64,000 nt of DNA from IMG/VR virus record IMGVR_UViG_3300044716_000940; one strand, 5' to 3'. This document shows, one piece after another, positions 43,241 to 59,094 of this stretch (the first letter of the stretch is position 1; the number at the start of each line of letters is the position of its first letter). Both the position numbers and the translations under genes were made by a program. The notes below the pieces were generated by a model. It made no database searches. It had not been told where the DNA came from and saw only the letters and a list, made by a program, of their open reading frames with translations. This DNA is from an uncultured virus (IMG/VR IMGVR_UViG_3300044716_000940). Its lineage: Duplodnaviria > Heunggongvirae > Uroviricota > Caudoviricetes.

Positions 43241-43250
43241 GAGGGTGCTC

Positions 43251-44092: not shown

Positions 44093-44281
44093 ATGTTTTA
44101 TTATTTAATCTCAAATGGTGTAGAAACGAAAGTTTCGAAATCTAAAAAGATACACGATAAATCTTACTTTACAAGCAACAACCATCCAAGCAAATTATCG
44201 CTTTGGGTTGATGCAAACTATAGTAAAATTACGACAATGGTTGTAAGTAAACAAACTTATGATACATTTAAATCAGCATAA
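44093..44281 (+). CDS. Hypothetical early protein
   Basis: 62 aa with RBS; stop codon lies in HHR1 stem I. Confidence 0.65.
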   Translation: MFYYLISNGVETKVSKSKKIHDKSYFTSNNHPSKLSLWVDANYSKITTMVVSKQTYDTFKSA

Positions 44282-44327
44282 CTGATGAGGCTTTATTAGC
44301 CGAAACTACCGAAAGGTAGTATTATGC
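44276..44327 (+). ncRNA. Hammerhead ribozyme HHR1 (type I)
   Basis: GCAUAA-CUGAUGA-GGCU(UUAUU)AGCC-GAAA-CUACC(GAAA)GGUAG-UA^-UUAUGC; predicted cut after 44321. Confidence 0.93.
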
Positions 44328-44463
44328 ATAATATGGTGAAAGCCATAGAAGCACCGTCGAGCCAGAGTTGAACAGAACGACGTAAAAGTAATCGAACTCA
44401 ACCGTTTCGAGGATAACGTAAAAATCCTCACTAAATTATTTTATTATTGAAAGGAAAATTATT

Positions 44464-44634
44464 ATGAATAAAATTATATATAACGGTTTTAACCGTGGAG
44501 GTATGGTTAGCGCCATACATATGGAGTGTGATACTTCAAGCTTTACTTATAAGCTCAACGATGATGAACTCATCAAAGCGTTTAAAGAAATCTTCGCTGG
44601 AAATGCAAATTTCCTAGCTGTGGAGGACTTATAA
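44464..44634 (+). CDS. Hypothetical early protein (56 aa)
   Basis: ORF MNKIIYNGFNRGG with AAGGA RBS; below the ORF-track cutoff. Confidence 0.55.
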   Translation: MNKIIYNGFNRGGMVSAIHMECDTSSFTYKLNDDELIKAFKEIFAGNANFLAVEDL

Positions 44635-44783
44635 TGTTTGAAATGAAATACTTAATCATTGTGATTGGATTAGTTTACTTTGGTATTGGATTAGACCAAT
44701 ATTTCAAAGGATCTTTACCAAACCTTATTGTTTACACTGGCTACGCCTTTAGTAACATTGGTTTATATTTATTAGCTAAATAA
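44634..44783 (+). CDS. Small membrane protein (49 aa)
   Basis: Hydrophobic ORF, GGAGG RBS, start overlaps upstream stop. Confidence 0.55.
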   Translation: MFEMKYLIIVIGLVYFGIGLDQYFKGSLPNLIVYTGYAFSNIGLYLLAK

Positions 44784-44794
44784 AGGAATTAAAA

Positions 44795-44965
44795 ATGGAA
44801 TTAGCATTTTCTATCGTGTTTATCGTTGTTGTGATTGCCGCTGTATTGGGTTATATCGCAAACATCGTTAAACTTTTTTCACAGCTACAAGTGGACGGTA
44901 AAACAATTGCAAGAGCTTGTGGAGTATTTATATTCCCACTAGGAGCAATCTTAGGATGGTTCTAA
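44795..44965 (+). CDS. Small membrane protein (56 aa)
   Basis: MELAFSIVFIVVVIAAVLGYIANIVK...PLGAILGWF; AAGGA RBS. Confidence 0.6.
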   Translation: MELAFSIVFIVVVIAAVLGYIANIVKLFSQLQVDGKTIARACGVFIFPLGAILGWF

Positions 44966-44966
44966 C

Positions 44967-45017
44967 AATCTAACTGACGAGTCGGTAACGACGAAACCAC
45001 GAAAGTGGTCTTAGATT
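44967..45017 (+). ncRNA. Hammerhead ribozyme HHR2 (type I)
   Basis: AAUCUAA-CUGACGA-GUCG(GUAA)CGAC-GAAA-CCAC(GAAA)GUGG-UC^-UUAGAUU; cut after 45010. Confidence 0.95.
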
Positions 45018-45036
45018 ATTCACAAAAGGAGATCTT

Positions 45037-45831
45037 ATGAAAAATGACGTAATTGACGTCGAAGTAAAAGATGTAAAAATTGAGCAATTTCTAACTGAAA
45101 AGAAGGAATTGGTTCTTAATGCAGCTCAACGCACCGTTGAAGCGTATCTTGAAGTTGGTAAGCATCTCAAAGAAGTAAATGAGAAATTAGCAACTCGCAA
45201 TGGCGTAAATAGTCGTTGGGGTAGTTGGTTAGAAGAAGTAGGATTTGAGAAACAAAACGCAATTAACTGCATTCTAGTCTATGAGCGCTTTGGGAGGAAA
45301 ATTGATTTTCTTCCAAGCCAATCGATTACTATTCTTCAACAGTTATCAAAACCATCTAACGATCCTGAAAAGGTTGCTTTAGTTGAGCAAAAACTAGCTA
45401 AAGGTGAAAAGATGACCGTTGCTCAAGTTAAGGAAGTTCTTAAAAAGCTACCTGAAACTGAGCGAGAAATTGTCGCTAAAGCGGGTTATGAGCTCGCTGA
45501 AGAAGAACGAACTGGTATGACTAGCCAAGAATTAGATGCTTTCTACGAAAAGCAAGCAATTGAATATCAAGAAATTGAAAATGATATTTCAGATTTAAAG
45601 CCTATCGTTAAAAAGCAATATTCTGAAATGGTAATTGAAAGCCATCGCGAAGCATTTCTAGACGATATTGAATTATATTCATGGATCTTAGAAATGAAAA
45701 CATTTGCTGAAAACAATGGATATGTGTGTAAAGCTCTTGAAAGAGAAAATAACACTGTATTTAATAACACAAAAGAGATTAAAGAGCATATTAAGCACGC
45801 TAAATCTCAATTAAAAGAAGTATTTAAATAA
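45037..45831 (+). CDS. DUF3102-like domain protein
   Basis: LEVGKHLKEV...WGSWLEE.GF N-terminal pattern. Confidence 0.55.
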   Translation: MKNDVIDVEVKDVKIEQFLTEKKELVLNAAQRTVEAYLEVGKHLKEVNEKLATRNGVNSRWGSWLEEVGFEKQNAINCILVYERFGRKIDFLPSQSITILQQLSKPSNDPEKVALVEQKLAKGEKMTVAQVKEVLKKLPETEREIVAKAGYELAEEERTGMTSQELDAFYEKQAIEYQEIENDISDLKPIVKKQYSEMVIESHREAFLDDIELYSWILEMKTFAENNGYVCKALERENNTVFNNTKEIKEHIKHAKSQLKEVFK

Positions 45832-45852
45832 TATAAAGAAGGAATAAATCTT

Positions 45853-46278
45853 ATGAAAAGCTTTAAAGTAACAGCAGCACAGATAAATAAAATTGCAAAA
45901 ACAATGACCAAAGGTTTAAAAGCCAGTGGTCCAGTTTTATCTACAGCTATTAAAGATGTAGCAACAACGCTGAGCGCTGAGCGCGCCCAAGAAATTGCTT
46001 CATGGAAAGTATTAAAAGAAGCGATTAATGAAGTTAATGCTGCTAATAAAAAGGCATTTATTAGTGGTGATGCCCGGGCATTAGCTAAAATGTGGGATAT
46101 ATTTCCAGTAGGTATGGAAGGACATTCACGTATTAGAGAATTAATGACACACAAAGACGCTAGAGCTAAAAACTCAGGAGTGATATGGTCTCAATATGTT
46201 GGCGACCATAAAGCAAACTTAAAGCGTGCAAAAGCATCTATTAACTATTCAACAGCATTGATCAATGCTTACATATAA
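45853..46278 (+). CDS. Hypothetical early protein
   Basis: 141 aa with RBS. Confidence 0.7.
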   Translation: MKSFKVTAAQINKIAKTMTKGLKASGPVLSTAIKDVATTLSAERAQEIASWKVLKEAINEVNAANKKAFISGDARALAKMWDIFPVGMEGHSRIRELMTHKDARAKNSGVIWSQYVGDHKANLKRAKASINYSTALINAYI

Positions 46279-46323
46279 CTGATGAGTCGGGAACGACGAA
46301 ACTGGAGAAATCCAGTCTTATAT
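46273..46323 (+). ncRNA. Hammerhead ribozyme HHR3 (type I)
   Basis: AUAUAA-CUGAUGA-GUCG(GGAA)CGAC-GAAA-CUGGA(GAAA)UCCAG-UC^-UUAUAU; cut after 46317. Confidence 0.95.
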
Positions 46324-46337
46324 TAAAAGGAAATATT

Positions 46338-46661
46338 ATGAAAAAAGAATTTAAACCATACGATTTTATCGTAGAAATAGACGGAAAGTGGTATACGTCT
46401 GTCGAGTTTCGCGTTATTGTGGATTATGAAAATATCCTAAGTGGTCGCGAGCTTGAAGAGTCTGTTATGCTTGACACATTGGTGTATGACCGTTGGAATA
46501 TGGTTATGCCTATTACTAAGCGTGCTCGTCTCCTAATGGATGATGGCACTGGTGTAATCAAAGAGTGTGGTCGCTTTAAGTATAAAGTAAACTTTAACTC
46601 ACGTCAAGAGTTGGACGACGATTATGTCGTTGATCCACGCAATAGTAAAGGAAAATACTAA
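46338..46661 (+). CDS. Hypothetical early protein
   Basis: 107 aa with RBS. Confidence 0.7.
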   Translation: MKKEFKPYDFIVEIDGKWYTSVEFRVIVDYENILSGRELEESVMLDTLVYDRWNMVMPITKRARLLMDDGTGVIKECGRFKYKVNFNSRQELDDDYVVDPRNSKGKY

Positions 46662-46770
46662 TGGATTATAAAGAACCGACTGTTGGAGAGATCATTGGAT
46701 GGGTAATCATCTTAATGGTCTTTTTTGCTTTTTTGTTTTTTGGTTTACACTTAGAAAGTAGAGGAATATA

Positions 46771-47007
46771 ATGACTGTAAAAGACACTATGATTTCGTTG
46801 GCGCTCACTCAGCTCCATACCGATCTTTACCGTATTTATGAGATATGGCTAGAAGTTGGCAATGGCGATATGAGCGTATTAGAGCAACGTATGGATAAAA
46901 CTCGTGATGAGTTTATGGCTCGCACAAGTGGCCATTTAACGGAGCAAGAGCAAACCCGCTTTTTCGTTAAAGCGTATGAAGATACGTTGATTGCTGTATT
47001 AAGTTAA
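46771..47007 (+). CDS. Hypothetical early protein
   Basis: 78 aa with GAGGA RBS. Confidence 0.65.
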   Translation: MTVKDTMISLALTQLHTDLYRIYEIWLEVGNGDMSVLEQRMDKTRDEFMARTSGHLTEQEQTRFFVKAYEDTLIAVLS

Positions 47008-47052
47008 ACTGATGAGTCCTCAATGGACGAAACCTCGTGAGAGGTCTTTAAC
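47003..47052 (+). ncRNA. Hammerhead ribozyme HHR4 (type I)
   Basis: GUUAAA-CUGAUGA-GUCC(UCAAU)GGAC-GAAA-CCUC(GUGA)GAGG-UC^-UUUAAC; cut after 47046. Confidence 0.95.
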
Positions 47053-47073
47053 ACTTATTATAAAAGGAATATT

Positions 47074-47292
47074 ATGCCAAATAGTAACATACCGAACATG
47101 TCTTATTGCATGTTTGAAAATACTGAAAGCGCACTTGAACAGTGTGTGGACGCTATGAGCGAAGCGTATGATGTAGAATCGCTTGATATGAATGAGCATG
47201 AGCGCAGCGCATTTTTGCGTATGAGAAATCTATGTAAAGACTTCTTAGCATTTCATGACGAAATTTTAAATAACACAAAGGAATCATTATGA
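47074..47292 (+). CDS. Hypothetical early protein
   Basis: 72 aa with MSYCMFENT motif and RBS. Confidence 0.7.
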   Translation: MPNSNIPNMSYCMFENTESALEQCVDAMSEAYDVESLDMNEHERSAFLRMRNLCKDFLAFHDEILNNTKESL

Positions 47293-47546
47293 AAATGAAA
47301 TATAAAGCAGCCTTTACGGCTTTGAAGAAAATCGGTTGTCCAGTGTATGAGCACTGCGACGATAACGGCAACTTTAGCATTTCTGCTGAAGAGGCTACGT
47401 CTTACTTATGGTGTGATTATTATGATGGATACCGAATTCCCGATTGGGAGTTTGGCGTAAGTCCTAAAATCACAGAGCTATTGCGCTCTAAAGGATTATT
47501 TGCTGAATGGCAAAATCCTGGTCGCTTAGTCGTATTTGAGATTTAA
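47289..47546 (+). CDS. Hypothetical early protein
   Basis: 85 aa, coupled start. Confidence 0.7.
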   Translation: MKMKYKAAFTALKKIGCPVYEHCDDNGNFSISAEEATSYLWCDYYDGYRIPDWEFGVSPKITELLRSKGLFAEWQNPGRLVVFEI

Positions 47547-47554
47547 GGAATACT

Positions 47555-48025
47555 ATGACAGACGAATTTTCTAATAAAGCTGAAAACAGTATAGCGAAAG
47601 AGCTTGGCATTGCCCAACGCTTTATCGTCTTAAACCAAATACGAACTCCTGATGGCACGATCTTACGATCGCTAAGCCGTCACCATTACCAAACCTATAT
47701 CGATAAGAACGGTAAAGAGTATATGGTTGATGGAGGTAATGATTACCTTCGTCGTAATCGCCATGACGATGCGCCATACGATGAGTTGTCGATTTATTCT
47801 GATGACTCTTTCGACGTAATCAGGAGAAGTTTGCATTGGGGCACTTACGGTCCCAAAGGTGATCAGCCAAAGCGCTATGTCCCACTAGCTGAACTGTCAG
47901 ACAACCATATAATGGCGATACTCGACACTCAAGCTCAAGTGCAAGGACAATTGCGCGAATGGTTTAAAGAAGAATTAAGATGCCGTGAATACGGTAAATA
48001 TGAATATATAAAGGATACATTATGA
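47555..48025 (+). CDS. Hypothetical phage protein
   Basis: 156 aa with MVDGGNDYLRR and WGTYG motifs. Confidence 0.7.
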   Translation: MTDEFSNKAENSIAKELGIAQRFIVLNQIRTPDGTILRSLSRHHYQTYIDKNGKEYMVDGGNDYLRRNRHDDAPYDELSIYSDDSFDVIRRSLHWGTYGPKGDQPKRYVPLAELSDNHIMAILDTQAQVQGQLREWFKEELRCREYGKYEYIKDTL

Positions 48026-48249
48026 ATGTAAATGATTTTGAAGTATTAAATCGCCGCTACGCTATCGACATTAATCGATTCCGTGATGGACAAGGTTTAA
48101 CCGTTAATTTATTTAACGCACTGTTTGACTATTATTGTCAATCAAACGAAATGCCTTATGGAGTCGCCAAGGCGAGAACCGGGGATCCGTATGAATGGAT
48201 CGATTCTCAATTTAGCGATTTCTTAAAAGATTTCGATAATTCACCGTAA
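48022..48249 (+). CDS. Hypothetical early protein
   Basis: 75 aa with EMPYGVAKARTGDP motif. Confidence 0.7.
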   Translation: MNVNDFEVLNRRYAIDINRFRDGQGLTVNLFNALFDYYCQSNEMPYGVAKARTGDPYEWIDSQFSDFLKDFDNSP

Positions 48250-48320
48250 CTGATGAGCCGTGCATTCGGCGAAACTATTGTTGTGCAAAATTAAACACTT
48301 GCGCTGCAGTAGTCTTACGG
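48244..48320 (+). ncRNA. Hammerhead ribozyme HHR5 (type I, extended stem III)
   Basis: CCGUAA-CUGAUGA-GCCG(UGCAUU)CGGC-GAAA-CUAUUGU.GUGCAA(loop)UUGCGC.GCAGUAG-UC^-UUACGG; cut after 48314. Confidence 0.92.
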
Positions 48321-48427
48321 CCACCGTTGGAGCCATCGCTATGGCGGTAAACAACGTCCTTGTATTAGTTGACTCCCTTTGTTGACGAAATGCGAGCGCT
48401 TTCGCAGGTTGAGCGTTATCAATTTGC

Positions 48428-48476
48428 CTGTCCATGGATGTGTGTCCATGCTGATGAGCCACAAATGGCGAAACAG
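48428..48476 (+). ncRNA. Hammerhead ribozyme HHR6 (type III)
   Basis: CUG-UC^-CAUGGA(UGUGUG)UCCAUG-CUGAUGA-GCCA(CAAA)UGGC-GAAA-CAG; short stem III; cut after 48432. Confidence 0.88.
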
Positions 48477-48497
48477 ACTTATTATAAAGGAAATAAA

Positions 48498-48746
48498 ATG
48501 GAATATACGAAACTAGAGGAATTGCAATGCACTTTCTCCGATTTTCACAAAGACTATTATGGTTATAGACCGCGCTTTGCTACCACTGAAGAGTGGAATA
48601 GCGAAGAATGGCTACAAGCTGCGATTGACAGTATTCACGATGCGATCGCTTATAGAGCAAGAACACCTGAAGGTCGAGCATCGCTGCTTGCTGAAGGGTG
48701 GAGTTATGAAGTAATTGATACTAATTTAAAAGGAAATATATCATGA
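48498..48746 (+). CDS. Hypothetical early protein
   Basis: Start MEYTKL at 48498 behind AAGGA; SDFHKDYYGYRPR motif. Confidence 0.7.
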   Translation: MEYTKLEELQCTFSDFHKDYYGYRPRFATTEEWNSEEWLQAAIDSIHDAIAYRARTPEGRASLLAEGWSYEVIDTNLKGNIS

Positions 48747-49177
48747 AAGTAGTAAATAATCCACAGGTGTATATGGAACCTGGAACCTATTATATTGGCG
48801 ATTTGTGCTATGTATTAGACGCTTCTTGGAGCGCATTCTGCAAACTCACTATACGTGATAACGAATGTCTTAACGGCGGATTTAGATTCGCTGATGGACG
48901 TGAGTTCGTGTCGTTTACAACCATCTATGGTGATGGCACATATACCGACGCAGAAGGTTTTAAATATCCAGTTGATGCAGGCTTAATTGGCTGTATTCGT
49001 GTTGAAGATATGGACTGCAGAATCGATACAATCACTGACTGCGGCCAAATCCGCGTTTTTACTAAACCGTTTGTATGCGAAAAGGTTGATGGTATCCTTT
49101 ACTTCGGTAAAGTGGCAATCGATCTTGACCCGTCTGACTGTAATCAAGAAGAAGAGGAGTATGACGATGAGTATTAA
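48743..49177 (+). CDS. Hypothetical phage protein
   Basis: 144 aa; YYIGDLCYV, T.YGDG.Y, VDAGLIG. Confidence 0.7.
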   Translation: MKVVNNPQVYMEPGTYYIGDLCYVLDASWSAFCKLTIRDNECLNGGFRFADGREFVSFTTIYGDGTYTDAEGFKYPVDAGLIGCIRVEDMDCRIDTITDCGQIRVFTKPFVCEKVDGILYFGKVAIDLDPSDCNQEEEEYDDEY

Positions 49178-49595
49178 CTTAGAACTGCTTGAAAAAGATA
49201 TGGATATACCTGCATGGAAGATTGCAGAAATGCAACGAGCAGAATTAGCTGATCCAGCCGGTATGCGTATGAATTTCTTAAACGGAACTTTATTTGCTAC
49301 ACATTATGCATATACTGATATTAATCCGTATGAAGTGATTCGTATTGTATCGGACAATTGCTTGGAAGTTCGTGAAATGACTCATGAGAATGATCCAAAC
49401 GATATGCCAAAGTTTGTGCCCGGTGGTTTTAGTGTCATTTGCACTCACTTTGGTAAACGTGTAATTACGTCTAATCCGAATGGTAAAACGTTTAAAATTA
49501 CTCGTAAAAAGAAAGATCCAACTCGTTGGGGATATAAAGGTTTGCGGTTCGGTTTAGATAAAGAGCCACACGCTTATTACGATCATAACTTTTAA
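49167..49595 (+). CDS. Hypothetical phage protein
   Basis: Probable start MSINLEL behind GAGGAG; ends YYDHNF. Confidence 0.65.
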   Translation: MSINLELLEKDMDIPAWKIAEMQRAELADPAGMRMNFLNGTLFATHYAYTDINPYEVIRIVSDNCLEVREMTHENDPNDMPKFVPGGFSVICTHFGKRVITSNPNGKTFKITRKKKDPTRWGYKGLRFGLDKEPHAYYDHNF

Positions 49596-49603
49596 GGATC
49601 ATT

Positions 49604-49807
49604 ATGAACATTGAGCATGAAAAGCATGCAGCTGTAATGGCGGATGAGATGTATAGTCAATTTAAAGAAAATACATTAGACTATGTCAGAGAATTTACCG
49701 TCACTAAAGATGGTTTCGATGATTTAGAAGACGCCATAGCAGTGGAAAACTATGCTATAACATTATTTGCAATTAAATTATTAAAGGAAATACACAACTA
49801 TGAATAA
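49604..49807 (+). CDS. Hypothetical protein
   Basis: 67 aa with RBS. Confidence 0.6.
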   Translation: MNIEHEKHAAVMADEMYSQFKENTLDYVREFTVTKDGFDDLEDAIAVENYAITLFAIKLLKEIHNYE

Positions 49808-50117
49808 CGCATTAAGAACCTCAACATGGGTAGCTACGCTCCCTACGCTCACGTCTGACGAAGATGTGCTTGCTTTACGCGCCATTAAATCGGCTGTAAA
49901 GTCAATTAACGAAAGCAACGCAATGGCCGATGGCTATGCAAAGAAAGGCTATCGCGCTCGCTTTAATAAGAGCTGCGAACAAGTCGGTTTGCCGCGCTAT
50001 CGCGTAACCATTCGTGCTCGCGGTCCTATCAATGGATACAAGTATGGATGGGGAGGCTACTTAAAGTTAGCTGGTGGTAGTCGCTTTGATATCTATATTC
50101 ACGAACGGAGAGCGTAA
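49800..50117 (+). CDS. Hypothetical protein
   Basis: 105 aa with RBS. Confidence 0.6.
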   Translation: MNNALRTSTWVATLPTLTSDEDVLALRAIKSAVKSINESNAMADGYAKKGYRARFNKSCEQVGLPRYRVTIRARGPINGYKYGWGGYLKLAGGSRFDIYIHERRA

Positions 50118-50383
50118 TGCCTAAGTTTAAGATACCAAAGAAATACCAAAAGTATATTGACGAAAGCTCTATCGATGTTTATCACGATCTGGATGCGTCA
50201 ACATATTTCGTATGGTTACGTTATGGATATTGTTATGACTATGAAAATAGCCGTAGCCATACTCAAGGATACGACTCACTTAAAGAGGCGTTAGCCGGTC
50301 TTGATAGCGTTTATCTTTGCAATTGCGATGATTGCGCTAAAGAGCCGCTTGGAACTCCAGTAAAGGACCTAATGAATGCCTAA
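50117..50383 (+). CDS. Hypothetical protein
   Basis: 88 aa, coupled start. Confidence 0.6.
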   Translation: MPKFKIPKKYQKYIDESSIDVYHDLDASTYFVWLRYGYCYDYENSRSHTQGYDSLKEALAGLDSVYLCNCDDCAKEPLGTPVKDLMNA

Positions 50384-50582
50384 ATTTGTGGTGTATGAAA
50401 CCAAAGACAACGGTAAGGATTATGTCCTTGCCACTGTCGAAGGTATGTCAGCTGCTATGAAAGAGCTGAAGCGCCGTAAGAAGTTGGTGAAAGAAACCTC
50501 TGTCGTCGGTATGCAAGACAAAGAGATTTATTTATTTATTAAAAAACATCAAGAAAAGGAATTAAAGAAAAATGGCAACTAA
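50376..50582 (+). CDS. Hypothetical protein
   Basis: 68 aa with RBS. Confidence 0.55.
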   Translation: MPKFVVYETKDNGKDYVLATVEGMSAAMKELKRRKKLVKETSVVGMQDKEIYLFIKKHQEKELKKNGN

Positions 50583-50805
50583 ACCTAACACAGTAAAGAA
50601 GCAAAAGAATGGTAACCTTACTCGTAACGGTAAGCCAAAGCTTAAGTCGTTAAGTGTTGCACAAATTCAAAAGCTAATCGATCAAGGTGCGCAGAAGAAT
50701 GCTACATCGAAGATTGGCAAGAAGATGGCGAAGCTTAAGAATGCACTATGTGCTCGCTTTACACCATTAGTCGATAGCGATCCTATCGGTTTTCAACAAA
50801 GTTAA
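50572..50805 (+). CDS. Hypothetical basic protein
   Basis: 77 aa; stop codon lies in HHR7 stem I. Confidence 0.6.
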   Translation: MATKPNTVKKQKNGNLTRNGKPKLKSLSVAQIQKLIDQGAQKNATSKIGKKMAKLKNALCARFTPLVDSDPIGFQQS

Positions 50806-50850
50806 ACTGATGAGTCCTTAATGGACGAAACCGCTTCGGCGGTCTTTAAC
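50801..50850 (+). ncRNA. Hammerhead ribozyme HHR7 (type I)
   Basis: GUUAAA-CUGAUGA-GUCC(UUAAU)GGAC-GAAA-CCGC(UUCG)GCGG-UC^-UUUAAC; cut after 50844. Confidence 0.95.
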
Positions 50851-50868
50851 ATATTATAAGGAGAATGT

Positions 50869-51699: not shown

Positions 51700-51740
51700 A
51701 AACGGTTCACTCGGTTAATCCCGGGTGAGCTACTATCCCC

Positions 51741-51753
51741 TAAGTTATTGATT
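51741..51753. promoter_or_regulatory. Isolated seventh TAAGTTATTGATT (IHF consensus) site
   Basis: Same 13-mer as the 43.25-43.48 kb array, between a hairpin and the next RBS. Confidence 0.55.
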
Positions 51754-51767
51754 ATAAAGGACTTATT

Positions 51768-52157
51768 ATGAATAAACAGTATACAAAAGACAAACAAAGA
51801 GCTAACAACTCTCCGCTAGCTTACGCAAAATATCGATATAATGCTCAAAAGCAAGCTGCCAAAACGCGAGGAATTGCTTGGGAGCTTGAGCCTTATAAAG
51901 ATGAAGTAATTTTTAAAATTGCTACTGCGGTAGTCTGTGCTGAAAGCGGGCGTAAACTTGTTCACCAAATCGGCAAGTCTAATTCTTATAAACCTAGCAT
52001 CGATCGCATAACAAGTAAAATAGGATACACCATATCAAACATTCAAATAACAACTTCTAGCATTAATGTAGCTAAGATGTCTCTAGAATCTAAAGAGTTT
52101 TACGAGATGTGTAGAGACGTTGTTGCACATTCAGCTTCTAAATATGAAAGGCAATAA
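51768..52157 (+). CDS. Putative HNH-like endonuclease
   Basis: AK.RGI.W, C..SG, PSIDRI.S..GY...NIQ...N..K. Confidence 0.65.
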   Translation: MNKQYTKDKQRANNSPLAYAKYRYNAQKQAAKTRGIAWELEPYKDEVIFKIATAVVCAESGRKLVHQIGKSNSYKPSIDRITSKIGYTISNIQITTSSINVAKMSLESKEFYEMCRDVVAHSASKYERQ

Positions 52158-52525
52158 TGGCTGGACCTCAAGGTAAGGCAATGGCGGTTGGCTCTCACTG
52201 CGCACGCAAAAACGTGTCAGTTGACGGCTATACTCGCTATGCAGTAAGACCACACAATGTCGAGCCATCAGGCGTTTATTTGAATAAAGTAAAAGCATGG
52301 ATGCATGAACACATGGAGTGGGAGACAAAGCAATGGGAGAAGAAGTTTGGTGTCAAAGAGTGGTGGCAGATGGTTAAGATTGAAATGACCAATTACTGCT
52401 TCGGCTTTGAAGGCAATCAAGCGACTTATCTTTATTTAAAATATAAAGGAGAACTTGATGAATCGCAAGCGAAACCTAGTGGCGAAATACGCGGCAAGAT
52501 TCGCTATAAGCAAGCCGATTCTTAG
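52157..52525 (+). CDS. Hypothetical protein
   Basis: 122 aa, coupled start. Confidence 0.55.
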   Translation: MAGPQGKAMAVGSHCARKNVSVDGYTRYAVRPHNVEPSGVYLNKVKAWMHEHMEWETKQWEKKFGVKEWWQMVKIEMTNYCFGFEGNQATYLYLKYKGELDESQAKPSGEIRGKIRYKQADS

Positions 52526-52576
52526 CAAAAAGCAACGAGCTAAGAGTCGTAAAGTAAAACATAAGCGTAAGGATGG

Positions 52577-53056
52577 ATGATGAATATCTTTTATTTGCAC
52601 GAAGATCCTGTAATGGCGGCAGAAATGCATTGCGACAAGCATGTATGCAAGATGATTATCGAAACGGCTCAGATGATGAGCTCTGTTTATTCGCGATATG
52701 GTTGTGAAAATCCGCCATACAAACCAACGCATCAAAAGCACCCATCAACTGTGTGGACTGGCGACAGCCAACTACACTATAACTGGGTGCGCACGCTTGG
52801 TTTGCAGCTTTGCCGTGAATACACCAAGCGCTATAATAAAACCCATAAGACTGAAGCTGTTATAAAGGCTTTATGGTTAGCGCCAAAAGATATGCCGATA
52901 TTGGCATGGCAAGATCCGCCACAGTGTATGGATGCGGAGTATAAGCGTGATAATACGATCGAAGCTTATCGTAATTATTATATAATGGCGAAAGCTAAGT
53001 TTGCCAAATGGGCACACGCAACAAAGGCACCGCAATGGTGGCCTAACACAGTATAA
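52577..53056 (+). CDS. Pyrimidine-dimer glycosylase (DenV)-related family protein
   Basis: MNIFYL..DP..AA..HCDKHV.KMI.E.AQ, YK.TH..HP..W, EY..RY.K.H. Confidence 0.6.
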   Translation: MMNIFYLHEDPVMAAEMHCDKHVCKMIIETAQMMSSVYSRYGCENPPYKPTHQKHPSTVWTGDSQLHYNWVRTLGLQLCREYTKRYNKTHKTEAVIKALWLAPKDMPILAWQDPPQCMDAEYKRDNTIEAYRNYYIMAKAKFAKWAHATKAPQWWPNTV

Positions 53057-53100
53057 CTGATGAGTCCTAATGGACGAAACGCCGTGATGGCGTCTTATAC
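53051..53100 (+). ncRNA. Hammerhead ribozyme HHR8 (type I)
   Basis: GUAUAA-CUGAUGA-GUCC(UAAU)GGAC-GAAA-CGCC(GUGAU)GGCG-UC^-UUAUAC; cut after 53094. Confidence 0.95.
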
Positions 53101-53116
53101 ATTATAAAGGAGAACT

Positions 53117-54670
53117 ATGATAGATGAAATCAAGCAAAAGTTATCCATCGCCAAAGTAGAACTAAAGACAGAGCAAGCAGCTTTGCGCTCTTTAGTGGCG
53201 GTAAGAGATAGCGCAAAACGCGCAGCGAAAACAGCTGTTATGTTTCGTGGCACTCCGTTTTACTTCCGTATCGGAATGGACTTCCGCGGTCGTATGTATT
53301 ACAAAGGCGCTCACTTGAATCCTCAAATGGGCGATGACATTAAGTCAACATTAGTCTTAGCAAATAAAAAACCTTTAGGTGCTGATGGCTATAAATGGTT
53401 ATTGTGGGGAGTAGCATCCTCAGCTGGTTTCGATAAAGCTGATTTCCAAACACGTGTTAATTACACATTGGATAATTTATTCGAAATCAAAGAAGCAGTG
53501 GCTAATCCGAATGAATCTGAGTTCTTTAAGAAAGTTCACTCTGATGGAGAGCCTGCTTTATTCTTGCAGCGAGCCGGTGAGTTGGTGAAAGCGCTTGAGT
53601 CGGGTTCGATTCAGACGTATGAGACCGATATCACTATTGCTATGGACGCTACTTGCTCTGGCTTACAGCTATTATCCGCTGTGGCACGCGACGCTGAAGG
53701 CGGTTCGTTAGTGAATATCACAGCGACTGCTGAAGGTCAAACAGAAAAGCGAGATGTGTATAGCAAGGTTTGCCAGCTTATCTTAGAGAAGTATGCTGAT
53801 TTGCCGGATAATTTCTTTGCACAGTGGATTACCAAATATGGTCTTCCGCGTCGCTTTACAAAGAAAGTGGTAATGACATTGCCATACTCTGCTACGGTTC
53901 GTGGCGCGATCTCTTATGTTCAAGAGGAATTGTATGGTAATCCTGAGAAAGGTGCTTTGCCATACGATCTTCCAACTGAGCCAGCAGATCGCTTATCGCT
54001 ATTAATGGCGGCTAGAGCGTTAGCACATATTGATCGAGTGGATGAGGATATCTCAACTGACTCGTTATACTATGTGATGGCTACTGTGCTTGCTAAAGAT
54101 ATGCATGAGACTTGCCATAAAATCCTGCCAGCAGCTATGAAGCTATTGGACTTCTTTAAATCGACACCAAGTCATTTATTTGACCATGCGATTTGGAATA
54201 CTCCTGATGGCTTGCATGTTAAGCAGCTTTATGGTGTGAAAGAAGACTTTACTTTCCACTACAAGTTTATGCACACTGATCCAGCGACTGGTGAGATTGC
54301 TCCAACAACTATATTCCGTAAATATAACTATTTGGATCCGAGTGAGAAAAATAGAAGCAAAGCCGCTAATGGTATGCCACCAAATTGGGTGCACTCATTG
54401 GACGCTACGCTAGTTCGACGTGTGGTGTTAAAGTCTCCATTCGACATTGTGTGTATTCACGATTCGTTTGCAGCACACCCAGCTGATTGTAATAAATTAG
54501 CGTCGATTTTACGTGAAGAGTTTGTATGGTTAATTGAGCAAGATCCACTAGGAACTTTGATTAAACAGCTGAACGATCAAGTTGGCGCTCAAGTATTCTC
54601 CACTGAAGGATTGATGGTGAATACGCTAAAGACCGATGATCCACTAAGATCGGAGTTCTTATTCTGTTAA
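53117..54670 (+). CDS. T7-like RNA polymerase, C-terminal catalytic subunit
   Basis: DFRGRMY, DATCSGLQ (motif A), R..TKKVVMTLPY (motif B), PNWVHSLDA, IHDSF (motif C); lacks the N-terminal domain. Confidence 0.93.
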   Translation: MIDEIKQKLSIAKVELKTEQAALRSLVAVRDSAKRAAKTAVMFRGTPFYFRIGMDFRGRMYYKGAHLNPQMGDDIKSTLVLANKKPLGADGYKWLLWGVASSAGFDKADFQTRVNYTLDNLFEIKEAVANPNESEFFKKVHSDGEPALFLQRAGELVKALESGSIQTYETDITIAMDATCSGLQLLSAVARDAEGGSLVNITATAEGQTEKRDVYSKVCQLILEKYADLPDNFFAQWITKYGLPRRFTKKVVMTLPYSATVRGAISYVQEELYGNPEKGALPYDLPTEPADRLSLLMAARALAHIDRVDEDISTDSLYYVMATVLAKDMHETCHKILPAAMKLLDFFKSTPSHLFDHAIWNTPDGLHVKQLYGVKEDFTFHYKFMHTDPATGEIAPTTIFRKYNYLDPSEKNRSKAANGMPPNWVHSLDATLVRRVVLKSPFDIVCIHDSFAAHPADCNKLASILREEFVWLIEQDPLGTLIKQLNDQVGAQVFSTEGLMVNTLKTDDPLRSEFLFC

Positions 54671-54688
54671 AAATTTTATGAAAGAGAG

Positions 54689-55597
54689 ATGCTTATGGTA
54701 GAAACGACTAGAGAGTATCAAATGGAGCGAGAGTTCGAAATGATTAAGCTTGGGCTGCAAGTCCAGCAAAATCTAACGGTTAATCTTCGCATTGCATCCA
54801 TCGAATTTAAACGTGAAATCGAGCAATTGACACAAGCTATATTAACATGGAGAAAAGCCGATCGCTTTCGAGGTAGTGAGCGAAAGGCTTATTCTACGTT
54901 GTTGGATACTTTGCCAGCTCAAGTGGTTGCAGAGAATATTATTTATGCAATCCTTGAAACTCACTTAAAAACTGACGATGGCGCACCAATAACTTTCCAG
55001 TTTATTGTGACAAATGCTTTAATATTAAGCCGATTTAAGGCATTATTGCCAAAAGAAGCTACGGCTATTCCTCACCAATTTAAGTTTAAAATTGTGGATA
55101 TGCTTGTAACTAGAGGAGTGTATTTATTATCCTCAATCTTTGTGGTGAAAAAGCAATACCAAGAGATGGCGTCTATTGAGCTTACAACTCGTGCTAAAAA
55201 TCGTTTAGCTGAGGTAGACAGCCGATCGCTTATGTTTGATGGCCCAATGCACTGCAAGCCAGAAGATTGGGTTTCTGTATTTAATGGCGGTTATTTAACT
55301 TCTGAAATGCAGAAAACTGCACCATTGGTTCGGAGCTTGCAACATGACTTTAAAGAGCTAGTGGCCATTGATCGTTCTTTACAAGCTCACCCGGAAATCT
55401 TGCAATCCGTTAATAAACTGCAAGGCGTCTGTTTTAAAATCGATGAGAATTATGAGCAATATCATAATACTGTGGATAATTTTAGAATACACGCAATCAA
55501 AAAGGTTGAGACTAACTTAACCAAGCTAAAAGCCGAAATTCTTAAACTCGAGCAAGAGTTAAAAGAAGCTGAGGCCAGCACAGCTGATGAGACTTGA
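54689..55597 (+). CDS. T7-like RNA polymerase, N-terminal subunit
   Basis: PMHCKPEDW....GGY....PLVR...QSVNKLQ...FKID resembles T7 RNAP PCVVPPKPW..GGGY...LVR...AINIAQ...WKIN. Confidence 0.8.
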   Translation: MLMVETTREYQMEREFEMIKLGLQVQQNLTVNLRIASIEFKREIEQLTQAILTWRKADRFRGSERKAYSTLLDTLPAQVVAENIIYAILETHLKTDDGAPITFQFIVTNALILSRFKALLPKEATAIPHQFKFKIVDMLVTRGVYLLSSIFVVKKQYQEMASIELTTRAKNRLAEVDSRSLMFDGPMHCKPEDWVSVFNGGYLTSEMQKTAPLVRSLQHDFKELVAIDRSLQAHPEILQSVNKLQGVCFKIDENYEQYHNTVDNFRIHAIKKVETNLTKLKAEILKLEQELKEAEASTADET

Positions 55598-55627
55598 TTA
55601 GTCGAAACGCCGTGAGGCGTACTGTGC
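55578..55627 (+). ncRNA. Hammerhead ribozyme HHR9 (type I)
   Basis: GCACAG-CUGAUGA-GACU(UGAUU)AGUC-GAAA-CGCC(GUGA)GGCG-UA^-CUGUGC; overlaps the last codons of the RNAP N-subunit gene; cut after 55621. Confidence 0.93.
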
Positions 55628-55672
55628 AATACCCGGTATACCGCTAGGAAGTGTATTTCACCATGTGGAATA

Positions 55673-55701
55673 ATATCCGCCTTAGGTATACTAAGACATG
55701 G
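55673..55701 (+). promoter_or_regulatory. Candidate phage-RNAP promoter upstream of replication genes
   Basis: ATATCCGCCTTAGGTATACTAAGACATGG, exact inverted copy of 43182-43210. Confidence 0.65.
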
Positions 55702-55739
55702 AACCAAACCATGTTTTTTTTAACCTTATAGGAAATAAG

Positions 55740-56279
55740 ATGGCAAAACTTAAAAATGCAATCACGCCAAAAGGTGTATTGTCCTGGCCTTACATCGCTA
55801 AGCCAGATACACGATATAACCCTGAAGGTGTGTATAAAACCAGCATTGTCGTACCTGCAGCAGAAGCTGCTTCGCTGATGGAAATGTGCAAAACTCAATT
55901 TGTTGAAGAGCATGGACAGGCTAAGCTTGCAAAAGCTAATATGCCTTTTGAAGTAAATGAAGAGAGCGGTGAAGTTACGTTTAAATTCAAATCAAAGCGT
56001 CAACCAACTGTTTACGATGCCAAAGGCAAAGTAATTAAGAAAGTTCCGCAGATTTCTTCTGGCACTATTGCCAAAATCTCAACTGCAATTAACCCATACG
56101 CAACCGGCATTAATATTGGCGTATCGCTATATTTAAATGATGTTCAAGTAATTGAGCTCGTTGAATACGGCAAAGGCGCGGTATTTGGCGCTGAAGATGG
56201 TTATGAGTATGAAGATGATGGCTCTGTAGATGAAGAAAAGGAGCCAGCACTTGGCGAAAAGACCGACTCGGACTTCTAA
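55740..56279 (+). CDS. Single-stranded DNA-binding protein (T7 gp2.5-like)
   Basis: TPKG...PYI.KPD, GVSL.L..VQVIELVE, acidic tail ending in DF. Confidence 0.9.
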   Translation: MAKLKNAITPKGVLSWPYIAKPDTRYNPEGVYKTSIVVPAAEAASLMEMCKTQFVEEHGQAKLAKANMPFEVNEESGEVTFKFKSKRQPTVYDAKGKVIKKVPQISSGTIAKISTAINPYATGINIGVSLYLNDVQVIELVEYGKGAVFGAEDGYEYEDDGSVDEEKEPALGEKTDSDF

Positions 56280-56658
56280 GCAAGTTGGAAATTACTTAGG
56301 ATTTCGTTCTGGACTTGAAGAGCGTGTTGCCGAACAGTTAGTTGAAGCTAAAGTTCCGTTCACTTTCGAAGAGATGAAGATTAGTTATTTAAAGCCTGAG
56401 CGTAAAGCAATTTATACTCCTGACTTTGTATTATCTAATGGGATTATCGTCGAAACTAAAGGAAGGTTTTTAACTGCTGATCGGCAAAAACATCTGCTTG
56501 TCAAAGAGCAACATCCAGAGTTAGATTTACGTTTTGTGTTTAGCAGCTCAAAAACTAAAATTTCAAAATCATCAAAAACCTCTTACGGCGATTGGTGTGA
56601 GAAGAATGGTTTTCAATATGCTGACAAAACTATCCCCAACGAATGGCTAAAGGAATAA
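56230..56658 (+). CDS. Endonuclease I (T7 gp3-like)
   Basis: FRSGLEE, YTPDF.L.NGI.VETKGRF, DRQKHL, YGDWCEK.GF; start uncertain. Confidence 0.92.
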   Translation: MKKRSQHLAKRPTRTSKQVGNYLGFRSGLEERVAEQLVEAKVPFTFEEMKISYLKPERKAIYTPDFVLSNGIIVETKGRFLTADRQKHLLVKEQHPELDLRFVFSSSKTKISKSSKTSYGDWCEKNGFQYADKTIPNEWLKE

Positions 56659-56659
56659 G

Positions 56660-58270
56660 ATGGTTGAAGAAGAATCAAGGTTTCTTAGACATGAAGCATG
56701 CGATAATTGTGGGTCGTCAGACGCTAAAGGCGTTTACTCAAACGGCTCAACATTCTGCTTTAGCTGCCAAGCTTCTACACGAAGTGATGGCAGTGGCAAA
56801 GTAAAAGTGATGAATGCTACGGCACCATCGTTAGACCCATTTCATGCTGCCCAAGTTGAAGCATTGGCGGCTAGAGGTATTAGCGAAGCTACATGCCAAA
56901 AGTATAATGTTCGCAAAGGTGAGCACAGCGGTAAAATGGTGCATTTCTATCCATACGTTAAAGATGGCGTTATTATCGCCGCTAAGACTAGGGATAAAAA
57001 TAAAAACTTTAGCGTTATCGGTGATGGTAAGGACCTTCCATTCTTTGGACAACACTTATTCCCAAAGCCGAACGATAAGTTATCAATCACCATTACTGAA
57101 GGTGAAATTGACGCGCTATCTATGAGCCAAATAATGGGTAATAAATATCCTGTTGTTTCGGTGCCAATTGGTGCTCAAGGCGCTATGAAGACATTCCGCA
57201 ATAATATCGAATGGCTTGATGGCTGGAAAGACGTTGTTATTATGTTTGACAGCGATGGGGCTGGTAGAGAAGCTGCCTTAAAATGTGCAGAGATTCTCCG
57301 ACCAGGTAAAGCTCGTATTGCTGAGTTACCATTAAAAGACGCTAATGAAATGCTGATGGCGAATCGTGCCGAAGAGCTAATGAAATGCTTTTGGGATGCG
57401 AAATCGTTTAGGCCTGATGGCATTATTGCTGGCGCTGATTTATGGGACGCTGTAAACAAAGAAGATGCTATCGAAACAGTGGAGTATCCGTTTCAAAAGC
57501 TCAATGAACTTACTAATGGCATACGCCGTGGTGAGCTCGTAACCGTTACTGCTGGTAGTGGTATCGGTAAATCTGCATTTATGCGAGAGATAACTTATCA
57601 TCTCTTAAATAAAGGCGAACGCGTTGGTATGGTAATGTTGGAAGAAAGCGCACGTCGAACCGCTCTAGGTTTGATGGGCTTAGCTCTCAATAAGCCATTG
57701 CATATCAGCCGTGAAGGTATTTCACAAGAAGAATTACGCCAAGCATTTGATGAAACGCTTGGAAGTAATCGTGTATTCCTCTATGACCACTTCGGTTCAA
57801 CTGAAGTAGACCACTTAATGAATAAACTTCGTTATATGGTTAAAGGCTTAGAGTGTGATTGGTTAATATTAGACCATTTATCCATTCTCGTCTCAGGACT
57901 TGAAGGTATTGATGAGCGACGATTGATCGATCAAGCAATGACAATGTTGCGAACGTTTGTTGAAGAAACGGGTTGTGGATTATTATTGGTAAGCCATTTA
58001 CGACGGCCAGATGGAAAAGGCCATGAAGAAGGAGCTGCCACATCATTATCCCAACTACGCGGTTCACATGCAATTGCACAGTTGTCTGATATTGTGATTG
58101 GCCTTGAGAGAAATCAACAAGGCGAGAATCCTAACGAAACACTTATTAGAGTTCTCAAAAATCGCTTTAGTGGTAATACAGGATTCGGAGGCACTATGGT
58201 CTTTAGCAAAGAGACCGGTCGGCTTACCGAAGCATTTTCACAAGAAACATCACCATTTGGAGAATTTTAA
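56660..58270 (+). CDS. Primase-helicase (T7 gp4-like)
   Basis: Zn finger C..CGSSD...CFSC, TOPRIM ITEGEIDA, GSGIGKS, LDHLSI, LRGS.AIAQLSD, KNRF.G. Confidence 0.95.
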   Translation: MVEEESRFLRHEACDNCGSSDAKGVYSNGSTFCFSCQASTRSDGSGKVKVMNATAPSLDPFHAAQVEALAARGISEATCQKYNVRKGEHSGKMVHFYPYVKDGVIIAAKTRDKNKNFSVIGDGKDLPFFGQHLFPKPNDKLSITITEGEIDALSMSQIMGNKYPVVSVPIGAQGAMKTFRNNIEWLDGWKDVVIMFDSDGAGREAALKCAEILRPGKARIAELPLKDANEMLMANRAEELMKCFWDAKSFRPDGIIAGADLWDAVNKEDAIETVEYPFQKLNELTNGIRRGELVTVTAGSGIGKSAFMREITYHLLNKGERVGMVMLEESARRTALGLMGLALNKPLHISREGISQEELRQAFDETLGSNRVFLYDHFGSTEVDHLMNKLRYMVKGLECDWLILDHLSILVSGLEGIDERRLIDQAMTMLRTFVEETGCGLLLVSHLRRPDGKGHEEGAATSLSQLRGSHAIAQLSDIVIGLERNQQGENPNETLIRVLKNRFSGNTGFGGTMVFSKETGRLTEAFSQETSPFGEF

Positions 58271-58271
58271 G

Positions 58272-58517
58272 ATGAGCACAAACAACTACTTCGTAATCCG
58301 CGCAATCAAAGAAAAAGGCGTAGCAGCCTCTTCGTATATTGCAAAGAAATATAAAGTCAAAAACGTATCAGCCACTGTATCTGCCTTGCGCAAACGTGGT
58401 CATGAGATTGTAACACTCGCCGAAGGCTATGCATTACCGTTCGGCACGCGCGATGAAGCAGCTAAATTAAGTAAGACTGCGCGCAACAAAATTGCCAAGG
58501 AATTTGGCTTAGCATAA
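58272..58517 (+). CDS. Small HTH-like protein
   Basis: Start MSTNNY; IA..Y...NVSATVS.LR..G..I. Confidence 0.55.
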   Translation: MSTNNYFVIRAIKEKGVAASSYIAKKYKVKNVSATVSALRKRGHEIVTLAEGYALPFGTRDEAAKLSKTARNKIAKEFGLA

Positions 58518-58520
58518 TCA

Positions 58521-58580
58521 GTCTGACTGAAGAGTCCTTAATGGACGAAACCGCCACTCGGGAGAGTCGCGGTCTCAGAC
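58521..58580 (+). ncRNA. Hammerhead ribozyme HHR10 (type I)
   Basis: GUCUGA-CUGAAGA-GUCC(UUAAU)GGAC-GAAA-CCGC.ACUC(GGGA)GAGU.GCGG-UC^-UCAGAC; cut after 58574. Confidence 0.93.
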
Positions 58581-58649
58581 AACCCAAAACTATATCGATA
58601 ACCTGAATCGAATCCTCCTGTAGTTTAACATCCATTAGGAGTTAAAACT

Positions 58650-59048
58650 ATGAGCCTTAGAAATAAACTAATTTTAGCAAGTCGTGCACATTATGATGCA
58701 CATATTAGAAAACACATTATGAATGTGGAAGTTATCTTAGCAAATCCATTGGCGCTGCCTGAGCATGCTGATTTAATGGACGCTATTGAAAAAGAGCTTC
58801 TCATTGTTGATGAGTATCAAGGAAAACTCGACGCTCTAAATAAATATTTTAAAGTCGATGTGCCATTCACAACTAGCGATAGCGGTAGCGAAAACGGCAA
58901 TAACGGCAACAATGGTAATAAAGACGATAATAGCGATAACAGCGATAATAGCACGTCAAGCACCACTAGCACAACCACTCAAGCGGATGCTACAGTGACA
59001 GCAGGCGCTGGCTCACATATTGTTATTGAGCGACCATTCACAGTCTAA
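58650..59048 (+). CDS. Hypothetical protein with N/D/S/T low-complexity linker
   Basis: 132 aa with AGGAG RBS. Confidence 0.7.
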   Translation: MSLRNKLILASRAHYDAHIRKHIMNVEVILANPLALPEHADLMDAIEKELLIVDEYQGKLDALNKYFKVDVPFTTSDSGSENGNNGNNGNKDDNSDNSDNSTSSTTSTTTQADATVTAGAGSHIVIERPFTV

Positions 59049-59094
59049 CTGATGAGTCCTTTATGGACGAAACCGTAGCGATACGGTCTTAGAC
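59043..59094 (+). ncRNA. Hammerhead ribozyme HHR11 (type I)
   Basis: GUCUAA-CUGAUGA-GUCC(UUUAU)GGAC-GAAA-CCGUA(GCGA)UACGG-UC^-UUAGAC; cut after 59088. Confidence 0.95.

Follow-up and report, generated by a model that had tools for sequence, protein, structure and literature searches.

In phage T7 the early polycistronic mRNA is cut by host RNase III at intergenic sites, giving discrete mRNAs with structured 3' ends, and synthetic ribozyme insulators follow the same logic of separating message units. Cleavage by a hammerhead ribozyme leaves 5'-OH and 2',3'-cyclic phosphate ends. Here we analyse an array of eleven hammerhead ribozymes in an uncultured tailed phage (Caudoviricetes; IMG/VR record IMGVR_UViG_3300044716_000940), in a stretch of 64,000 nucleotides (nt) that was studied whole and is referred to below as the window, and we compare it with the closest described systems. 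Perreault et al. (2011) reported multiple hammerheads flanking genes or short gene blocks in prophages, proposed that long phage transcripts are processed in this way to operon- or gene-length mRNAs, and, testing triple arrangements, observed cleavage in vitro for three and in E. coli for one (PMC3088659). The same paper describes the haloarchaeal viruses HF1 and HF2, in which a hammerhead variant 13 nt upstream of the early helicase start codon heads a polycistronic early transcript whose mapped 5' end lies within 3 nt of the cut (PMC3088659). A review of 2019 repeats the transcript-processing idea and calls its purpose open, with differing stability or differing translation efficiency both possible (PMC6765202). 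Most recently, the de la Pena group (Nucleic Acids Research 2026) set DNA phage hammerheads aside as already known and described a type I hammerhead that fills the short intergenic region of RNA viruses, with a cut 7 nt before the start codon in one case, and with a 5' end at an RNA-virus hammerhead cut found in vivo (PMC13725137). The role of bacterial and phage hammerheads is still called open in both of these later sources (PMC6765202, PMC13725137).

Set against the published accounts, the array in the window is a large, clade-conserved example of an arrangement known since 2011, and not a new kind. As in the prophage clusters of Perreault et al., where types I, II and III occur, several hammerheads on one strand flank genes or short blocks; all eleven are on the gene strand, and PHROG matches (terminase, portal, head, tail and replication families) identify the window as phage DNA. 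It differs from those clusters, as far as the arrangements tested there go (triples, on fragments of ~2 kilobases (kb)), in holding eleven ribozymes in 15 kb, with seven to nine in its relatives, although larger clusters may be present in the data sets of Perreault et al. (PMC3088659). The array is also confined to the replication arm, accompanies the phage's own split RNA polymerase and is conserved in a clade. The HF1/HF2 ribozyme likewise lies shortly upstream of an early replication gene, but it is a single core-variant ribozyme of an archaeal virus, with no array in the account given of it (PMC3088659). Type I hammerheads of RNA viruses likewise occupy a short intergenic region and cut a few nucleotides before the next start, but these are eukaryotic RNA viruses, and the role proposed for their ribozymes is cap-independent translation initiation (PMC13725137). 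The literature covered, which is partial, contained neither a phage reported to have at least eight hammerheads nor a description of RNA release by a type I/type III pair. An original prediction, made from the sequence alone, had suggested a dedicated mRNA-processing system; the density it remarked upon is indeed notable, while the kind of system was already in print (PMC3088659).

Eleven hammerheads at gene boundaries of the rightward arm

PHROG and Pfam scans divide the window into two divergent arms starting near 43200. The whole window was searched on both strands with a descriptor comprising CUGANGA, a closed stem II, GAAA, a stem III with the A15.1-U16.1 pair, a residue H17 other than G, and a stem I. 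This returned eleven elements, all on the + strand and all within the rightward arm, ten of them type I, with an open stem I, and one type III (48428-48476), and thereby reproduced to the base the eleven elements and cut sites that had been predicted (Table 1). No full match was found on the - strand or outside 44276-59094, and none of 200 dinucleotide-preserving shuffles of the window held a full match on either strand. The full core and three paired stems, as claimed earlier, are present in every element: C3 U4 G5 A6 N7 G8 A9 and G12 A13 A14 are intact in 11/11, with N7 being U in nine, C in one and A in one, and the A15.1-U16.1 pair and a non-G H17 occur throughout (C in nine, A in two).

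Comparison with Rfam gave a more graded picture. Eight of the eleven match a hammerhead model (RF00163, RF00008 or RF03152) at E <= 0.016, but a single element, 53051-53100, reaches a gathering score (Hammerhead_1, RF00163; 36.6 against 34 bits) in the both-strand Rfam check recommended with the original prediction. The other ten copies fall below, with 28-33 against 34 bits, 41.7 against 48.5 bits, or at most 34.3 against 56.3 bits. The last of these thresholds is that of RAGATH-1 (RF03152), to which none of the elements is assigned, as upstream hairpins are also not above background. Hammerhead 1 (44249-44326) gave only a weak match to the RAGATH-1 hammerhead model (E 7.6), hammerheads 5 (48244-48320) and 9 (55578-55627) gave no hammerhead match in wide Rfam scans of the window, and a scan of 321 nt around hammerhead 5 returned a chance-level RAGATH-1 match (15.7 bits, E 4.1). 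The shortfall of the ten copies is probably due to a long stem III and unusual loops. A covariance model, R1, was built from nine of the type I copies, the tenth (hammerhead 5, which has a long stem III and was misaligned by MAFFT) being held out; R1 recovers the copy thus set aside (37 bits, E 1.7e-8). When filters were switched off, R1 found nothing further above 12.7 bits on either strand of the window, and the Rfam scan of the window found no other ribozyme class at E <= 10. The statement that the leftward arm lacks hammerheads is thus upheld by the descriptor, the Rfam scan and R1 alike. On these sequence criteria the eleven elements are confirmed as genuine hammerheads on the sense strand at gene boundaries.

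With regard to placement, which had been described as sense-strand and at gene boundaries, all eleven are on the gene strand and ribozymes occur at 10/35 gene boundaries of the rightward arm, giving blocks of one to seven genes. The two-gene block encoding the RNA polymerase is bounded exactly by hammerheads 8 and 9 (cuts 53094 and 55621). Seven of the window's ten type I copies have the upstream gene's stop codon as part of their stem I, on its 5' strand, and in hammerhead 9, which overlaps the last 20 nt of the polymerase N-terminal-part gene (54689-55597), it lies within stem II. Five cuts had been placed 20-27 nt before the next ATG, just ahead of the ribosome-binding site (RBS), and the measured distances agree (26, 20, 27, 24 and 22 nt), each cut being followed by an A/U-rich leader and a Shine-Dalgarno sequence.

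Table 1. Positions of the hammerhead ribozymes and of the RNA predicted between two of them (ORF, open reading frame)
Feature	Position	Strand	Predicted cut after	Detection	Gene context
Hammerhead 1, type I	44276..44327	+	44321 (GUA)	Descriptor; R1 67.7 bits	Stem I 5' strand holds stop codon of ORF 44093-44281
Hammerhead 2, type I	44967..45017	+	45010	Hammerhead_1 32.5 bits	Cut 26 nt before ATG 45037
Hammerhead 3, type I	46273..46323	+	46317	Hammerhead_1 30.2 bits	Stem I holds stop of ORF 45853-46278; cut 20 nt before ATG 46338
Hammerhead 4, type I	47003..47052	+	47046	Rfam 29.3 bits	Stem I holds stop of ORF 46771-47007; cut 27 nt before ATG 47074
Hammerhead 5, type I, long stem III (40 nt)	48244..48320	+	48314	Descriptor; R1	Stem I holds stop of ORF 48022-48249
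118-nt RNA	48315..48432	+			Between cuts of hammerheads 5 and 6; predicted release with 5'-OH and 2',3'-cyclic phosphate
Hammerhead 6, type III	48428..48476	+	48432	Hammerhead_3 41.7 bits (gathering score 48.5)	Would stay on 5' end of downstream message; next ATG 48498
Hammerhead 7, type I	50801..50850	+	50844	Rfam 28.3 bits	Stem I holds stop of ORF 50572-50805; cut 24 nt before ligase ATG 50869
Hammerhead 8, type I	53051..53100	+	53094		Cut 22 nt before ATG of RNA polymerase catalytic part; clade-conserved position
Hammerhead 9, type I	55578..55627	+	55621 (GUA)	Descriptor; R1 63.3 bits	
Hammerhead 10, type I (N7 = A)	58521..58580	+	58574	RAGATH-1 hammerhead model 34.3 bits (gathering 56.3)	
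Hammerhead 11, type I	59043..59094	+	59088	Hammerhead_1 32.7 bits	Stem I holds stop of ORF 58650-59048; cut 45 nt before DNA polymerase ATG 59134

Conservation and covariation in related phages

The T7-type RNA polymerase of the phage is split, and its two genes stand in reverse order, the catalytic part (53117-54670, +; PF00940, PHROG 414 positions 337-816) preceding the N-terminal part (54689-55597, +; PHROG 414 positions 201-322, and PF14700 at 29.7 bits, just under the gathering score of 30.1). No close relative was found among GenBank phages by DNA search, the best protein match of the polymerase part there being to Klebsiella T7-like phages at 32% identity, and the bacterial genomes searched held no relative of this part. 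The catalytic part itself belongs to a family of ~18 proteins of 466-532 amino acids (aa) with PF00940 alone and 49-97% identity, beyond which the more distant matches are unsplit polymerases of ~800 aa. Related loci were searched with an alignment of 17 catalytic-part proteins. Among viral contigs this gave 14 loci, of which one is the phage of the window, eight are at 51-61% identity and five at 26-29%. Hammerheads were found by the descriptor on the gene strand in all eight loci of the closer group (8, 3, 3, 8, 3, 2, 3 and 8 copies) and in none of the five distant ones. Among metagenome contigs, 17 loci were obtained, with hammerheads in 11/13 clade loci, the two without being short, and in 0/4 distant loci; several of these loci are near-identical and are counted once where stated. 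Four records (G001 and L004-L006) are 99.7-100% identical to the window and represent the same phage, and as such are not independent. Whole records of relatives carry eight, eight and seven type I copies on one strand, with one type III copy in addition in two of the three, and in the two longest records the type I copies are confined to ~16 of 66.8 kb and ~14 of 52.4 kb. The survey of related phages that had been recommended therefore shows hammerheads conserved in the split-polymerase clade, with seven to nine in the same arm, whereas distant relatives with an unsplit polymerase have none.

The clade also allowed placement to be counted over 52 distinct type I copies, with the upstream ORF defined as at least 40 codons. 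In 22 copies the stop codon of this ORF falls within stem I, in 13 within the core or stem II, and in another 15 no more than 15 nt upstream of the ribozyme, while two copies have no such stop; as such, the upstream ORF ends inside the ribozyme or at most 15 nt before it in 50/52. The next start codon is at most 30 nt from the cut in 31/52. Stem I is of 6 base pairs (bp), with one copy of 7 bp, and stem II is of 4 bp in all. Stem III varies in length under identical flanks, from 92 nt at L026:617-744 to 14 nt at L027:3471-3520, and large differences in this stem are likewise seen at L010:2784-2900, L021:510-619 and L007:7558-7654. Judged from these loci, stem III tolerates, or hosts, insertions of up to ~80 nt.

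It had been noted that the stem sequences of the copies differ while pairing is kept, and this is in agreement with our data, both among copies and among orthologues, through compensatory changes. In nine aligned window copies, 99.3% of cells are paired as against 76.1% in shuffles, both partners have changed in 12/16 pairs, and in a control where partners were slid by 1-3 columns pairing falls to 27-43%. When the window was pooled with five related loci, giving 38 matches of which 34 are distinct, 98.4% of cells are paired as against 73.8% in shuffles, and the 34 distinct copies hold 120 doubly changed cells where 26.6 are expected, a number reached by none of 500 shuffles, in an alignment that was fitted to a covariance model and leans towards structure. 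A stricter test was confined to the orthologous ribozyme that immediately precedes the polymerase gene, taken from seven loci with six distinct sequences, with pairs counted outward from the core by script: all 15 counted pairs are canonical in 7/7 loci, at least two pair types occur at 11 positions, and variation within the core is restricted to the free position N7. This last observation bears directly on the suggestion that the motifs are relics, or hairpins that act only as 3' stabilisers or pause sites, with no cleavage in vivo. Such a reading, which we regard as extremely improbable, would sit comfortably with the ten of eleven scores below Rfam gathering thresholds and with the lack of a detected tertiary contact (below). 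However, the 13 core positions are intact in 11/11 copies of the window and in 52/52 type I copies of the clade (the descriptor requires them), the core differs among the seven orthologues solely at N7, and mere hairpins would not preserve CUGANGA, GAAA and UH.

Comparison of flanks between relatives raises a further reading, in which the hammerheads are mainly joints of exchangeable cassettes (leader, gene or genes, hammerhead) that are gained and lost through recombination between near-identical ribozymes, with cleavage secondary or serving the cassette. A single hammerhead of L007 has an upstream flank 95% identical to that before window hammerhead 2 and a downstream flank 88% identical to that after hammerhead 3, which implies that the window genes at 45037-46278, together with one ribozyme, are an insert bounded by hammerheads. 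Similarly, the single L014 hammerhead at 15583 shares a 34-nt downstream flank with the second L008 hammerhead at 6404, and the gene that lies between the two L008 hammerheads, before the DNA polymerase gene, is missing in L014. Within the window, 47001-47053 and 50799-50851 are 89% identical with flanks included, and hammerhead 9 is present in the phage of the window alone, with no counterpart at the same position in the relatives examined. The position before the polymerase gene, in contrast, is kept across 50-60% protein divergence with compensatory changes, which argues that the fold is selected, and not merely the sequence homology that recombination would use; every copy has the sense orientation, which joints acting at the level of DNA would not need; and other differences between the genomes lack hammerhead boundaries. 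As the leading account of the array this is unlikely, although it is compatible with transcript cleavage, and the ribozyme-bounded cassettes are best treated as a lead, not a rule, suggested by these few flank comparisons.

Proposed processing of the early transcript

We consider it likely that the eleven elements are functional hammerheads that cut long early/replication transcripts co-transcriptionally into gene blocks. Each ribozyme would fold while being transcribed and cut after GUC or GUA, and the message would be split into ~11 blocks of one to seven genes. The upstream block would end 40-45 nt past its last stop codon, with a 3' end formed by stems II and III plus a 2',3'-cyclic phosphate, and the downstream block would begin with a 5'-OH and, at the tight boundaries, with a 20-27-nt A/U-rich leader that includes the Shine-Dalgarno sequence. 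What the phage would probably gain is a set of independent mRNAs, one per block, with defined, exonuclease-resistant ends, and we propose that the stability and translation of each would then no longer depend on its neighbours. The motifs, their placement, their covariation and their conservation in the clade are direct observations, whereas self-cleavage, the units of transcription and any influence on stability or translation are inferred. The original prediction of a polycistron cut into units is the most economical reading of the array, with the qualification that the predicted units are gene blocks rather than single genes. The 3' hairpins that it invoked correspond to the ribozyme's own stems II and III, since hairpins upstream of the ribozyme are no stronger than background.

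The proposed process resembles that of T7, in that a polycistronic early transcript would be cut at intergenic sites to give structured 3' ends. In T7 a host protein cuts hairpins to leave a 5'-phosphate and a 3'-OH, whereas here an RNA acting in cis would leave a 5'-OH and a 2',3'-cyclic phosphate; the array would therefore work like the RNase III system without being a member of it, and additional use of RNase III would be compatible with it. The earlier suggestion that ribozymes are used instead of RNase III is, on this analysis, unsupported.

Several observations weigh against transcript processing by the array. Just 10/35 boundaries bear a ribozyme, and only one of the eleven elements passes a gathering score of Rfam. 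The stop codon of the upstream ORF lies inside the ribozyme in 35/52 clade copies, and terminating ribosomes could unfold it. Natural fast-cleaving hammerheads have a tertiary contact between stems I and II, either loop-loop or a pseudoknot. Complementarity between loop II and the stem I flank was not in excess here (mean run 2.5-2.7 nt, as against 2.6-2.8 nt when permuted), and with no such contact detected, which is the main weakness at the level of sequence, rapid cleavage at cellular Mg2+ stays putative. Folds of the 40 nt upstream gave hairpins no stronger than background. Predicted accessibility of the RBS is alike before and after cleavage (0.51-0.62 as against 0.49-0.64). Finally, DNA, protein and bacterial-genome searches gave no host, and hence no host RNase set. 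Three more specific ideas were rejected on the same data: a pseudoknot between loop II and the flank as the tertiary contact, which gave no signal in the complementarity test; a RAGATH-1-type upstream hairpin, since the upstream folds are within background and the model scores at most 34.3 against 56.3 bits; and unmasking of the RBS by cleavage through simple secondary structure, since predicted accessibility does not change.

The 5'-OH end of the glmS ribozyme in Bacillus is an entry site for RNase J1. Cleavage in the array could similarly be a decay or shut-off signal that limits and times early expression, either through entry of an exonuclease at the 5'-OH or through the cyclic phosphate as a mark for turnover. 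The confinement of the ribozymes to the early/replication arm and their absence from the 43-kb structural arm would fit such a role, as would the unchanged predicted access to the RBS, and the review of 2019 leaves stability and translation efficiency both open (PMC6765202). However, entry at the 5'-OH would depend on an RNase J in the host, and the essential polymerase, primase/helicase and DNA polymerase genes directly behind cuts, with optimised short leaders, would be odd for a destabiliser; we judge this reading to be quite unlikely.

The clade offers a dense natural data set, with seven to eleven ribozymes per genome, in which the placement follows rules: an upstream stop inside or just before the ribozyme, and a cut 20-30 nt ahead of the next start. 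It also offers a kept position before the phage's own RNA polymerase gene, ribozyme-bounded cassettes and a pair predicted to release an RNA. Given a cultured member, or matching metatranscriptomes with end-specific libraries, the clade could reveal whether ribozyme cleavage serves to stabilise phage messages, to insulate them or to time them. The array would also be a natural counterpart of the ribozyme insulators that synthetic biology places between cistrons.

A type I/type III pair and other features of the genome

A stretch of 118 nt, almost free of ribozyme sequence, separates the predicted cuts of hammerheads 5 (type I) and 6 (type III), which face each other. This pairing recurs in L007 and L014, with cuts 118 nt apart, and in the more distant L030, where the cuts are 119 nt apart and the sequence between them has largely diverged. 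Three hairpins are predicted in all four versions of this RNA, and the 3' hairpin is kept with compensatory changes; fold z-scores of the versions are modest (-1.0 to -3.4). A conserved pyrimidine loop (UCCCUUU, and CUUCCUUU in L030) is complementary to the Shine-Dalgarno consensus of the phage, AAAGGA(A/G), although to read this complementarity as a meaningful signal is speculative. These features raise the possibility that the array is more than punctuation, with the pair releasing a trans-acting 118-119-nt regulator of translation and the hammerheads doubling as joints for cassette exchange, a possibility that we hold to be doubtful. The released RNA could be a linear or a circular regulator, and we propose that its 5'-OH and 2',3'-cyclic phosphate ends would make it ready for RtcB-type ligation.

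Against a special role, the 118-nt RNA is 80-92% identical to its L007 and L014 counterparts, a level that does not clearly exceed the 77-90% of the flanking genes. It matched no Rfam family at a meaningful score (best ALIL, 11.5 bits), nhmmer gave no further copies, and a pattern scan of viral contigs returned just two contigs that were already known. A tRNA was also considered and rejected, the tRNA search being negative. Hammerhead 6 belongs to a widespread viral type III subclass with loop I UGUGUG, for which 113 stretches were found in viral contigs and 80 loci (L039-L118) were read, with the full ribozyme present in 79/80. Members have a 7-bp stem I with the UGUGUG loop and a 4-bp stem II with an A-rich loop. 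A type I ribozyme lies 118 nt further upstream at only 2/80 of these loci, which are those on the L007 and L014 contigs. At most loci of the subclass a G+C-rich hairpin ends a few bases before the cut, and as such the upstream RNA would end in a stable hairpin; that this hairpin is a general habit of the subclass again weighs against a special role of the 118-nt RNA. Both the released RNA and the ribozyme-bounded cassettes would raise the value of the find if confirmed.

The genes of the window were assigned from PHROG and Pfam scans, with ORFs of the rightward arm taken from a greedy ORF call. The rightward arm (43.7-63.7 kb, ~36 ORFs) combines small uncharacterised genes with a replication set comprising, in order, an ATP-dependent DNA ligase, an endonuclease VII-like gene, a DNA-binding protein, the T7-type RNA polymerase, a gp2.5-like single-stranded DNA-binding protein (SSB), endonuclease I, primase/helicase, DNA polymerase and exonuclease, and the PHROG matches bear out the earlier description of this arm as T7-like and devoted to replication. 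Encoded in the leftward arm (0.35-43.1 kb) are nucleotide-metabolism genes, a T7-lysozyme-like amidase, thymidylate synthase, terminase, a radical SAM protein, a 2-oxoglutarate (2OG) oxygenase, endolysin, a head protease, the major head protein, ribonucleotide reductase, portal, collagen-like fibre proteins, the major tail protein and tape measure, and because of this gene content the virion is taken to be siphovirus-like, not T7-like.

Two repeated motifs mark the heads of the arms. Motif A, CTAAGTTATTGATT(C/T)TAAA(G/C)G, of 14-22 nt, occurs in six or seven tandem copies at 43250-43490 (+), at the head of the rightward arm, where the motif copies overlap a doubtful ORF (43312-43542); a further copy is at 51740-51761 (+), before the gene at 51768. 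Six matches to the 22-mer were found where 0.00 are expected, the 14-mer core is present in seven copies in the window, and the motif (CTAAGTTATTGATT...) is kept at the same places in L007, L010 and L021. Its position makes motif A a candidate phage promoter, which would feed the long polycistronic transcripts that the ribozymes are proposed to cut. Sigma-70-like sites were uninformative (51 found, 53.4 expected). Motif B, a near-palindrome (CCTTAGGTATACTAAGA), is present in three copies at the head of the leftward arm, 43011-43240 (-), and once at 55680-55696 (+), directly before the ATG of the gp2.5-like SSB gene, with five matches at up to three mismatches (four exact) where 0.21 are expected. 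In two places motif B directly adjoins an ATG that has no obvious Shine-Dalgarno sequence, and it may serve as an operator or promoter, or act in translation.

Other observations concern the leftward arm. Several large tail-fibre-like proteins of collagen-like Gly-X-Y repeats are encoded at 6124-19255 (-), with repeat families of up to 85 copies at 9-nt spacing; the ORF of 1359 aa at 7245-11324 matched no PHROG family. The radical SAM protein (484 aa) and the 2OG-Fe(II) oxygenase lie at 32504-36105 (-) among the genes of this arm, and may have a role in nucleic acid or nucleotide modification. Finally, nine tandem units of 12 nt (TCTGGAGTTGGC-like) are found at 22270-22413 (+), inside the ORF 22204-22611 (+) and shortly past the start of the oppositely oriented portal gene.

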